Shown here: piece by piece, positions 197 through 4,017 of the stretch
Numbering within the stretch: the first letter of the stretch is position 1
How the letters are laid out: every line of letters begins with the position of its first letter
DNA from: a virus
Lineage: Duplodnaviria > Heunggongvirae > Uroviricota > Caudoviricetes
Virus record (IMG/VR): IMGVR_UViG_2778261154_000011
Direction: 5' to 3' (one strand)
Length of the DNA: 4,017 nucleotides
Notes under the pieces: model-generated
Databases searched by the model: none
Seen by the model: only the letters and a program-made list of their open reading frames with translations
Told to the model about the DNA's origin: nothing
Translations under genes and position numbers: made by a program

Positions 197-336
197 CGGA
201 GCTGGAATGAATGCTGTTTACCTGTTGCGGAAATAAAGATTGCATATTGCGACAATTTGTTGCATGTTTAAGGTGCGCTTTTCCAGAGCGTATGCGTACG
301 CACCGCATGAAGTACAACCACAGAGAGGCAACCATA

Positions 337-567
337 ATGGCAACAAGCATCCGTTTAGACGATGATTTCGTCAGTGACGTAAAGGTTCACGCTGATGCCG
401 CAAGTCGCAGCATACCAAAACAAATTGAGCACTGGGCTAAGATTGGTCGTATAGCTGAAGATAATCCAGATCTGCCATTCAGTTTTATTAGCGAAGTTCT
501 GCTGTCACAAAGCGAAATCAGACACAACAAGGTAACGCGTTATGTCAGAAGAACAGACAGGTCGTGA
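337..567 (+). CDS. Putative type II antitoxin, ribbon-helix-helix (CopG/ParD/RelB-like) fold, 76 aa
   Basis: ATG at 337 is preceded by GAGAGG (323-328) at good spacing. The N-terminus MATSIRLDDDFVSDVKVHADAASRSIPKQIEHWAKIGRIAEDN has the beta-strand plus two-helix layout typical of RHH DNA-binding antitoxins, followed by a C-terminal tail (PDLPFSFISEVLLSQSEIR...) of the kind that usually binds the toxin. It overlaps the downstream gene by 26 nt. The ORF-track start at 211 looks like an upstream extension without a ribosome-binding site. Confidence 0.6.
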   Translation: MATSIRLDDDFVSDVKVHADAASRSIPKQIEHWAKIGRIAEDNPDLPFSFISEVLLSQSEIRHNKVTRYVRRTDRS

Positions 568-871
568 AATTGATGTTTATCAGAGTCGGCGTTTCGAAAA
601 GTCTCTGAGTAAACTCCCGGAAGCGCAACTGAAAGTTGTGGAAGATGAGATCGACAGAATAATTGACAATCCTCTGTTGGGAACGCAAAAGAAAGGAGAC
701 CTCAGTTTTCTTCGTGTGCATAAATTTCAGCTGAATAATCAACAGGTGCTTCTGGGTTACAGCTGGCTTGACGATAAACTTGAGCTCTACCTCCTTAGCA
801 TCGGTCCACATGAAAATTTTTATACCGATCAGAAAAAACACCGAAAAGCTGATTTAAAACTCATCGGTTAG
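542..871 (+). CDS. Putative type II toxin of the RelE/ParE superfamily, 109 aa
   Basis: ATG at 542 has AAGG (529-532) upstream. Size, position directly downstream of and overlapping an RHH gene, and a C-terminal segment LELYLLSIGPHENFY resembling the RelE-family C-terminal beta-strand/active-site region (compare E. coli RelE ...VVFVISVGKRERSEVY, recalled) support the call. A terminator follows 21 nt downstream. Confidence 0.6.
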   Translation: MSEEQTGREIDVYQSRRFEKSLSKLPEAQLKVVEDEIDRIIDNPLLGTQKKGDLSFLRVHKFQLNNQQVLLGYSWLDDKLELYLLSIGPHENFYTDQKKHRKADLKLIG

Positions 872-891
872 TCCTGACGTCATGCATACCA

Positions 892-916
892 GCCCACGTA
901 AACGCGTGGGCTTTTT
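892..916 (+). terminator. Rho-independent terminator after the toxin gene
   Basis: GC-rich stem GCCCACG (892-898) pairs with CGTGGGC (905-911) around a 6-nt loop, immediately followed by TTTTT (912-916). Confidence 0.65.
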
Positions 917-2470: not shown

Positions 2471-2980
2471 GTGGCTACTCAGACTGAAGTTGCCAGGCAT
2501 TTGAGTCTGACCGATCGCCAGCTTCGCAGATTACAGAAACTGCCGGGTGCCCCGGTTTCGAACAAGCGAGGACAACTGGATCTGGATGCCTGGCGTGATT
2601 TTTACATATCGTATCTGAGAAGAAGTAAAAACGATGTGCCTGATGGTGATCCGGAAGAGGATTATGAAGAGAAACTACTCATTGCGAGATGGGAACTGAC
2701 CGCAGAACAGGCTGTCGCACAGCAGTTAAAAAATCAGGTGTCAAAAGGAAATCTTATTGATAGCGGATTTTGTATTTTTGCCCTTAGTAAGCTGGCGATG
2801 GCTTTATCCAGTACGCTTGACTCCATTCCTTTGTCCATGCAACGACAGTTCCCGGATTTAACGCCGCGTCATATTGATCATCTGAAAATCCTTATTGCTA
2901 AGGGAGCGAATCAGTGCGCGCGTGCGGGGGATAAATTACCGGATTTACTCGATGAATATATCAGAACAACAACTGAGTAA
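2471..2980 (+). CDS. nu1: Terminase small subunit, lambda Nu1-like, 169 aa
   Basis: GTG start at 2471 with GAGGTG (2461-2466) upstream and an in-frame TGA just before it. The C-terminal two-thirds are clearly similar to lambda Nu1 as recalled (window ...SGFCIFALSKLAMALSSTLDSIPLSMQRQFPDLTPRHIDHL...LPDLLDEYI versus lambda ...TAFCTFVLSRIAGEIASILDGLPLSVQRRFPELENRHVDFL...IPGLLSEYI). The N-terminal HTH region is diverged. It overlaps the large-subunit start by 29 nt, as in lambda. Confidence 0.9.
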   Translation: MATQTEVARHLSLTDRQLRRLQKLPGAPVSNKRGQLDLDAWRDFYISYLRRSKNDVPDGDPEEDYEEKLLIARWELTAEQAVAQQLKNQVSKGNLIDSGFCIFALSKLAMALSSTLDSIPLSMQRQFPDLTPRHIDHLKILIAKGANQCARAGDKLPDLLDEYIRTTTE

Positions 2981-3914
2981 TATGATGGTGGCAGTCACTA
3001 TCGCACTGCAGCCACTGGTCAGGGTATTGCCGGTGACGGCTGTAGAATGGGCCGATCAAAATTATTACCTGCCTAAAGAATCGTCATACGGTGAGGGGGA
3101 ATGGAAAACGCTGCCGTTTCAGGTCGCCATCATGAACTGCATGGGCAATGACGAGATTCGTACAGTTAACCTGATTAAATCTGCCCGTGTTGGTTATACA
3201 AAAATGGTGCTTGGTGTGATCGGGTATTTTATTGAGCACAAATCCCGCAACACTCTTCTTTTTCAGCCGACGGACTCAGCTGCTGAAGATTTTATGAAGT
3301 CTCACGTGGAAGCAACAATTCGTGATGTTCCTTGCCTGAAAAAACTTTCTCCCTGGCTGGGCCGGAAACACCGGGATAATACGCTCACACTGAAGCGTTT
3401 TTCCTCTGGTGTGGGGTTCTGGTGTTTGGGTGGTGCTGCTGCCAAAAACTACCGTGAAAAATCTGTCGATGTGGTCTGCTATGACGAACTCTCCTCGTTT
3501 GAACCGGATGTGGAAAAAGAAGGTTCGCCAACACTGCTTGGCGATAAACGTATTGAAGGTTCGGTATGGCCAAAATCCATACGCGGTTCAACGCCAAAAA
3601 TCAAAGGCTCCTGCCAGATTGAAAAAGCCGCGAATGAATCTGCACATTTCATGCGGTTTTATGTTCCTTGCCCTCATTGCGGGGAGGAGCAGTATCTGAA
3701 ATTTGGCGATGATGCGACGCCGTTTGGCCTGAAATGGGAGAAAGGCAAACCGGAAACGGTGTATTACCTGTGTGAACATAATGGTTGCGTGATCCGTCAG
3801 TCTGAACTTGATCAGACCGGGGGGCGCTGGATTTGTGACAATACCGGGATGTGGACGCGTGACGGCCTGACATTTTACAGCGTCGGTGATGAGGAGATAC
3901 CCCATAAGCGCTAA
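2952..3914 (+). pseudogene. A: Terminase large subunit (lambda gpA-like), N-terminal ATPase fragment of 320 aa; nuclease and portal-binding regions absent
   Basis: From ATG 2952 (MNISEQQLSNMM...) the product is near-collinear with lambda gpA as recalled (TAVEWADQNYYLPKES, KSARVGYTKM Walker-A-like, VVCYDEL Walker-B-like, GDKRIEGSVWPKSIRGSTPK, FMRFYVPCPHCGEEQYLKFGD, YYLCEHNGCVIRQSELD). Similarity ends at ...SVGDEEIPHKR followed by TAA at 3912-3914, whereas lambda gpA is about 640 aa. No downstream frame in the remaining 100 nt continues gpA. The ORF-track start at 2895 is an upstream extension. Confidence 0.8.
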
Positions 3915-4017
3915 CTTAAGGGTTGAACCATCTGAAGAATGCGACGCCTCGGTGCCTCGTTAAGACGATGCCTCGCGTTCTTCAATTGCGTTTTGTAGGC
4001 TGTCAGGGATACTGTCC

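Follow-up and report, generated by a model that had tools for sequence, protein, structure and literature searches.

A ParD-like/ParE-like toxin-antitoxin cassette in a defective lambda-like Escherichia coli prophage, with a toxin that looks nearer to RelE-type mRNases than to gyrase poisons

Two small overlapping genes of toxin-antitoxin (TA) type, located between the lysis and packaging genes of a lambda-like prophage, raise the questions of whether they form a type II TA module, of how they came to lie there and, since the family of the second gene bears the name "ParE-like", of whether the toxin acts on DNA gyrase or on mRNA. The stretch of DNA analysed (4,017 nucleotides; hereafter, the window) is, by its gene content, the late region of such a prophage, and all 4017 bases are 100% identical to the E. 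coli assembly GCA_900450175.1 (UGFN01000003.1). We consider it probable that positions 203-908 constitute a type II TA cassette carried as moron cargo in a defective lambda-like E. coli prophage, which is autoregulated and encodes a RelE-like mRNase toxin that is neutralised by the antitoxin.

The first gene (337-567, + strand) encodes a 76-residue antitoxin, starting with ATG and preceded by a Shine-Dalgarno sequence, GAGAGG, at 323-328; the second (542-871, + strand) encodes a 109-residue toxin, likewise starting with ATG, with the Shine-Dalgarno sequence AAGG at 529-532. Their products belong to the Pfam families ParD_like (PF11903) and ParE-like_toxin (PF15781; RelE/ParE fold), respectively. 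The coordinates confirm the antitoxin-then-toxin order and the overlap, of exactly 26 nt, that were reported in a preliminary description of the locus made from the sequence. The same layout recurs in ~55 loci from many genera, including E. coli, Salmonella, Yersinia, Photorhabdus, Xenorhabdus, Serratia, Proteus, Providencia, Vibrio and Methylophaga, in which the ATG of the toxin follows that of the antitoxin at a distance of exactly 205 nt and the gene overlap is 23-41 nt, being mostly 26 or 32 nt. Because start spacing and overlap are both conserved across these loci, the pairing is not due to chance. Downstream of the toxin gene there is an intrinsic terminator (891-917, + strand), comprising a stem-loop (891-912) and a T-run; the terminator scan gives nine stem pairs, six of them GC, and a 4-nt loop, followed by TTTTCATATC. 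The folding energy of the RNA (-16.1 kcal/mol, z = -2.3) bears out the rho-independent terminator proposed in the earlier description, and a hairpin plus T-run follows the toxin stop codon in most homologous cassettes. The locus thus combines the features by which type II TA systems are recognised in genomes, i.e. adjacent co-directional small genes, a conserved pairing, and a shared promoter region and terminator. Comparison with the Salmonella copy gives a dN/dS of 0.04 in the antitoxin gene and of 0.08 in the toxin gene, showing strong purifying selection on both. On the minus strand, a 98-residue ORF (545-841) lies wholly inside the toxin gene; we considered it as a real gene and rejected it, the purifying selection being that of the plus-strand frames, and, because the substitution pattern matches the plus-strand frame, it is most likely spurious.

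The assignment of the antitoxin to PF11903 is well above threshold (69.3 bits, with a cut-off of 23; E = 2.7e-19), and the exact protein is present in RefSeq as WP_001300453.1, a 'ParD-like family protein'. PF11903 is a member of the ribbon-helix-helix (RHH) clan Met_repress (PMC7354421), and the AlphaFold (AF2) model (pLDDT 85) has an extended segment (residues 1-8) followed by helices at 9-21 and 26-42, i.e. the RHH order, so that the RHH-type N terminus suggested at the outset is upheld both by family and by model. Beyond the RHH the model shows a third helix (48-62), then a loose basic tail. With the model as a query, the top Foldseek matches were nearly all RHH proteins (CdbA, Rv0298, Arc, PutA, FitA, AmrZ, CopG), none of them significant (best E = 0.58), and the antitoxin profile returned chance matches only from the PDB, e.g. 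a lachrymatory-factor synthase at E = 0.3. The same was true of both the antitoxin and the toxin when searched against the PDB as single sequences, and neither protein had a match in NCBIfam. We found no literature on DUF3423 or on WP_001300453.1 and WP_001288264.1, the latter being the RefSeq entry for the toxin.

Analysis of the surrounding genes places the pair between the Rz lysis gene, the C-terminal part of which (PF03245) occupies positions 2-196 upstream, and the terminase genes, i.e. those for a Nu1-type small subunit (TerS, 2471-2980) and a gpA-type large subunit (TerL, 2961-3903), a setting that agrees with the phage late region of the preliminary description. Downstream of the pair lie a KilA-N/ORF11CD3 gene (1070-1567) and an 85-residue ORF (1564-1821; phrog_875), which overlap each other by 4 nt and which are found together both in Shigella phage Ss-VASD and in numerous E. 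coli prophages; a weak PADLOC match to the candidate system PDC-S22 (E = 1.2e-8) was obtained with the KilA-N protein. We considered whether the KilA-N gene might be the third member of a three-gene system and rejected the idea, the downstream neighbour varying with the host (ANT in Salmonella, unrelated genes elsewhere). Just upstream of the TerS gene, AAACCGGACAT is present three times, once inverted (2296-2306 on the minus strand, 2352-2362 and 2382-2392), whereas three matches occurred in none of 200 shuffles; these copies (2296-2392) are probably cosB-type terminase binding sites. The whole window gave no match in Rfam at E <= 1, and no tRNAs were found in it.

At the other end of the window (3904-4017) the end of an insertion sequence, which we take to be that of IS186, cuts the large terminase gene after position 3903. 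The identical contig (L066) has a 394-residue DDE_Tnp_1 (IS4-family) transposase on the minus strand, with the region coding for the terminase nuclease domain resuming ~1.4 kb later and with the repeat GAGATACCCC on both sides of the element. It is thus an IS4-family element that interrupts the large terminase gene in the E. coli assembly named above, and, because TerL is split in this manner, the prophage is packaging-defective.

How the TA pair came to lie in this region can be addressed by comparison with Ss-VASD, which is collinear with the window over 41-202 and 909-2040 and in which just 13 nt, being part of the Rz terminator stem, replace positions 203-908. The pair is therefore a discrete insertion of 706 bp (203-908, + strand) relative to the phage backbone, a finding which substantiates the proposal that it is cargo. 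In the relative RMDEC332 the same slot is occupied by a DUF4406 gene; the 'Gp49 family' annotation in related prophages, which we also considered, refers to a partial gene in a different slot. Backbone homology restarts at 909, within the 3' arm of the cassette terminator, and the sequence shared with more distant cassettes (70-78% nucleotide identity) starts at about window position 231. Directly after the Rz stop codon, positions 197-222 contain a degenerate copy (CGGAGCTGGAATGAATGCTG) of the Ss-VASD Rz terminator stem (CAGAGCCAGCATGATCGCTGG; L003 2482-2510), and the cassette terminator has only its GGCTTTTTCATATC tail in common with Ss-VASD; the junction produced by insertion or recombination would therefore appear to fall inside a terminator. 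The cassette is self-contained, comprising a promoter-like region, two genes coupled in translation and a terminator of its own, and, as an autonomous unit that lies between essential phage genes and is missing in close relatives, it has the properties of a moron. Its composition differs from that of its surroundings to a modest extent, as the preliminary description had judged by eye: the GC content of 337-871 is 0.426, whereas that of TerS is 0.463, that of TerL 0.489 and that of the window overall 0.483, and 337-871 is the lowest-GC block of 535 nt in the window, the minimum among the blocks that do not overlap it being 0.436.

The wider distribution shows the cassette to be mobile among prophages, plasmids and chromosomes. 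In the lambdoid prophages of E. coli and Salmonella it follows Rz, with KilA-N downstream in the former and ANT in the latter, whereas in Xenorhabdus- and Yersinia-type prophages it lies between a Q or methylase gene and a lysozyme gene, and in V. cholerae it occurs in a different prophage-like region. The cassette stands alone between housekeeping genes in Serratia, Proteus, Yersinia and Photorhabdus, and 73 plasmid records contain it, of which 43 are from Piscirickettsia and 10 from Pantoea. In the assembly collection, 346 indexed blocks contain the identical toxin; the full cassette is present in 10 of the 5,426 complete E. coli genomes, always on the chromosome, and a tblastn search with the toxin gave no match in any of 50,697 records of isolated phages. 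Decaying E. coli copies in other strains have IS600, IS3-family or IS1 elements right beside, on the upstream or the downstream side, a TA pair that is itself undisrupted (L001 18775-19931; L067 6587-7405; L065 4861-5364), and in Salmonella prophages with the cassette after Rz (L068, L070-L072, ~300-1475) a HicA/HicB TA pair lies on the opposite strand, adjoining the Q antiterminator gene. Taken as a whole, the distribution is what is usually seen with type II modules that are mobile and selfish.

It is possible, though we think it doubtful, that the role for which the cassette has been selected is not stabilisation of the prophage but abortive-infection defence of the lysogen against other phages. 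The location at the lysis-to-packaging junction, where related prophages have different cargo, fits such a role, as does the recurrence of the cassette beside the lysis genes of prophages from several genera; the position upstream of the packaging module is the one reported for most defence morons of the kind of Tai (PMC11364771), and other TA systems of the RelE superfamily are reported to be defence systems (PMC11980606). However, neither toxin nor antitoxin matches any of the PADLOC defence-system models, there is no evident trigger or sensor, the full cassette is rare among the complete E. coli genomes and its occurrence alone between housekeeping genes and on plasmids is that expected of an addiction module.

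With respect to the target of the toxin, the subfamily, for which the preliminary description proposed a profile search, is PF15781: the match to this family covers model positions 1-87 of 87 (113.9 bits, with a cut-off of 28; E = 3.3e-33), the family was assigned in 120 of the 120 homologues among the matches listed, and RefSeq contains the exact protein (WP_001288264.1) as a 'type II toxin-antitoxin system RelE/ParE family toxin'. PF15781 is placed in the RelE-type clan CL0136 (PMC7354421). The AlphaFold model (pLDDT 91) has the RelE/ParE (BECR) fold, in which a three-stranded sheet is preceded by two helices at the N terminus and followed by helices at the C terminus, in keeping with the RelE/ParE-like segment recognised in the preliminary description. 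Foldseek ranked mRNases (HigB2, RelE, YoeB, HP0892) in the first 24 places and the first ParE at rank 27, from which it is apparent that the fold alone discriminates weakly. A profile of 98 homologue sequences, searched against the PDB sequences, gave E. coli RelE at E = 0.002-0.006 and the YafQ-like toxins HP0892 and HP0894 of H. pylori at E = 0.02-0.03, and retrieved no ParE chain at E <= 1; no solved structure of a PF15781 or PF11903 member was found in our PDB searches.

Within the toxin family, K61 and L70 are invariant, and K50, G88 and the H90-E91-N92-F93-Y94 motif are at least 90% conserved. In RelE the catalytic set is reportedly composed of K52, R61, R81 and Y87. The profile alignment matches K61 of the toxin with RelE K52, H90 both with RelE R81 and with the His of the HP0892 GSHSELF motif, and L70 with RelE R61, whereas Y94 is two residues off RelE Y87. 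Since the R61 position is taken by an invariant Leu and the R81 position by His, the predicted active site is not that of RelE, but has more the look of a hybrid between RelE and YafQ. On the basis of the profile and the model, the PF15781 toxin looks nearer to the RelE/HigB2/YafQ mRNases than to the gyrase-type ParE toxins, despite its name, and ribosome-dependent mRNA cleavage is its likely activity.

The opposing view, that the toxin is a true ParE-type poison of DNA gyrase and not an mRNase, is in our opinion unlikely, although it can call on the Pfam names of both families, on the RHH partner and the antitoxin-then-toxin order, which are as in ParDE, and on the loss of RelE R61. It is opposed not only by the yield of the PDB profile search (RelE and YafQ-like toxins only) but also by the structural alignments, in which the toxin shares 16-24% sequence identity with mRNases and a lower 9-16% with toxins of the ParE type, and by the coincidence of the nearly invariant K61 and HENFY motif with RelE/YafQ catalytic positions. 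Moreover, a recent survey by Gerdes (2025) independently groups PF15781 within the subcluster of RelE mRNases, separate from that of the gyrase inhibitors, and describes the family as absent from the literature and experimentally uncharacterised (PMC11980606).

A more far-reaching version of the mRNase assignment, which we regard as speculative, is that PF15781 is a catalytically distinct RelE-like branch, with a Lys-His-Tyr site that lacks Arg61, and that the cassette has been selected in late operons for a phage-specific role. The repeated capture of the cassette in Q-dependent late operons, beside lysis genes and in at least four genera, could reflect phage-specific selection; were this so, the role might be abortive infection on superinfection or the shutting off of translation in step with late transcription, as opposed to that of a generic addiction module.

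Returning to the cassette as a putatively autoregulated unit, conservation of the upstream region points to a sigma-70 promoter at 240-268 (+ strand), with a -35 element TTGCAT (240-245), a 17-nt spacer and a -10 element CATGTT (263-268); the transcription start is predicted to be close to position 275. The predicted promoter of the window is weak, with 6 of 12 matches to the consensus, and was missed by a consensus scan, whereas the equivalent sites in other cassettes read TTGACA-N17-CATAAT (L052) or TTGCAT-N17-CATATT. The spacer contains a putative operator, a 19-bp imperfect palindrome (TTGCGACAATTTGTTGCAT, 247-265; family consensus ATGCGACAAATTGTCGCAT), and the location of such a 19-bp palindrome in the 17-nt spacer, between TTGACA-like and CATAAT-like hexamers, is a feature of the family. 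When up to four mismatches are allowed, the palindrome ATGCGACAAATTGTCGCAT is present in 32 of 47 distinct upstream regions, compared with 0 of 940 shuffles, and it is perfect in L054 and L056. This degree of conservation suggests that the promoter is self-repressed through the 247-265 palindrome.

Further downstream, in the predicted 5' leader, there is a second conserved inverted repeat, ATGCG-N7-CGCAT (292-308, + strand), the arms of which repeat the outer arms of the operator palindrome and which is kept across the Enterobacterales cassettes. In the Yersinia-type cassettes it is changed on both arms (ATGTGA...TCACAT), with the first palindrome unchanged. From its sequence it could be either a second operator or an RNA hairpin. 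The cassettes of Serratia marcescens (L073-L076, ~3660-3795) have a tandem heptamer array, consisting of CCCGAAAA and CCGAAAT units, between the operator/promoter and the antitoxin start; it differs in length and composition from strain to strain, and is perhaps a variable-number repeat by which operon expression is modulated.

That the pair is merely a decaying, non-functional remnant in a dead prophage is very improbable. In its favour are the defective state of the prophage, the many insertions of IS600, IS1 and IS3 type in sister copies and the weak promoter in the window. Against it, neither ORF is disrupted and many strains have both with 100% identity, despite the IS elements immediately alongside; the dN/dS values are low (0.04-0.08), and no start codon or nearly invariant residue has been lost, nor has the overlap.

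If the locus is the functional type II cassette that we propose, it may be envisaged to work as follows. The RHH antitoxin, as a dimer, would bind the palindrome at 247-265 and so repress its own promoter, and its C-terminal helix and tail (approximately residues 48-76) would wrap around the toxin and neutralise it. On loss of the labile antitoxin, free toxin would enter the ribosomal A site and cut mRNA in the manner of RelE and HigB2, using the conserved K61, H90 and Y94, and translation would be arrested. In a lysogen the consequence would be a penalty on loss of the prophage and, possibly, the abortion of infection by other phages. We infer the toxicity, neutralisation and target of the PF15781/PF11903 pair alike.

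The TA pair is already annotated automatically in RefSeq under its family names, and is a catalogued family pair in an ordinary setting; prophage-borne type II TA modules are commonplace, and the practical value of another is small. The only new point is that the "ParE-like" toxin looks like an mRNA-cutting enzyme of the RelE type and not like a gyrase poison; the family name is thus probably misleading as to the target, in agreement with the 2025 bioinformatic survey (PMC11980606). As a compact unit of 706 bp, with mapped boundaries, a predicted promoter/operator and candidate catalytic residues, the cassette is a convenient object for the characterisation of PF15781/PF11903. It is also suited to the question of whether TA cargo at the lambdoid lysis-packaging junction serves in phage defence.

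Among the known systems, RelBE of E. coli K-12, which is located in the Qin cryptic prophage, is similar in being a type II module with antitoxin-then-toxin order and an RHH antitoxin. RelE is also the best PDB match to the toxin by sequence profile (E = 0.002), with conserved equivalents of K52 and, with its offset of two residues, Y87. The two modules differ in their Pfam families (PF04221/PF05016 for RelBE, compared with PF11903/PF15781 here), in the replacement of RelE R61 and R81 by the invariant Leu and the His, and in that the PF15781 toxin has ~10 extra N-terminal residues and a longer, basic C terminus of two helices. HigB2 of Vibrio cholerae (PDB 5mje, 5ja8) is a ribosome-dependent mRNase; HigBA2, however, has a toxin-first gene order and a helix-turn-helix antitoxin, whereas in the present cassette the antitoxin comes first and is of the RHH type. 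The ParDE modules (those of RK2, Caulobacter, M. tuberculosis ParDE1 and E. coli O157 PaaA2-ParE2) contribute no ParE chain to the profile matches at E <= 1, and, in contrast with ParDE, the conserved Lys/His/Tyr set of the PF15781 toxin resembles RNase sites, leaving a gyrase target unsupported.

Two further comparisons concern phage-borne genes. PfiT/PfiA of the Pseudomonas Pf4 prophage (PDB 9w3a), which controls the production of its own phage, has a filamentous-phage host and low sequence identity to the cassette (12-15%). The lambdoid morons (HK97 gp15-type; Tai) are alike in being independent transcription units, with a terminator and a promoter (in the cassette, a predicted one) of their own, that lie between essential late genes and are missing in close relatives; they encode a single exclusion or defence protein, whereas the cargo described here is a TA pair.
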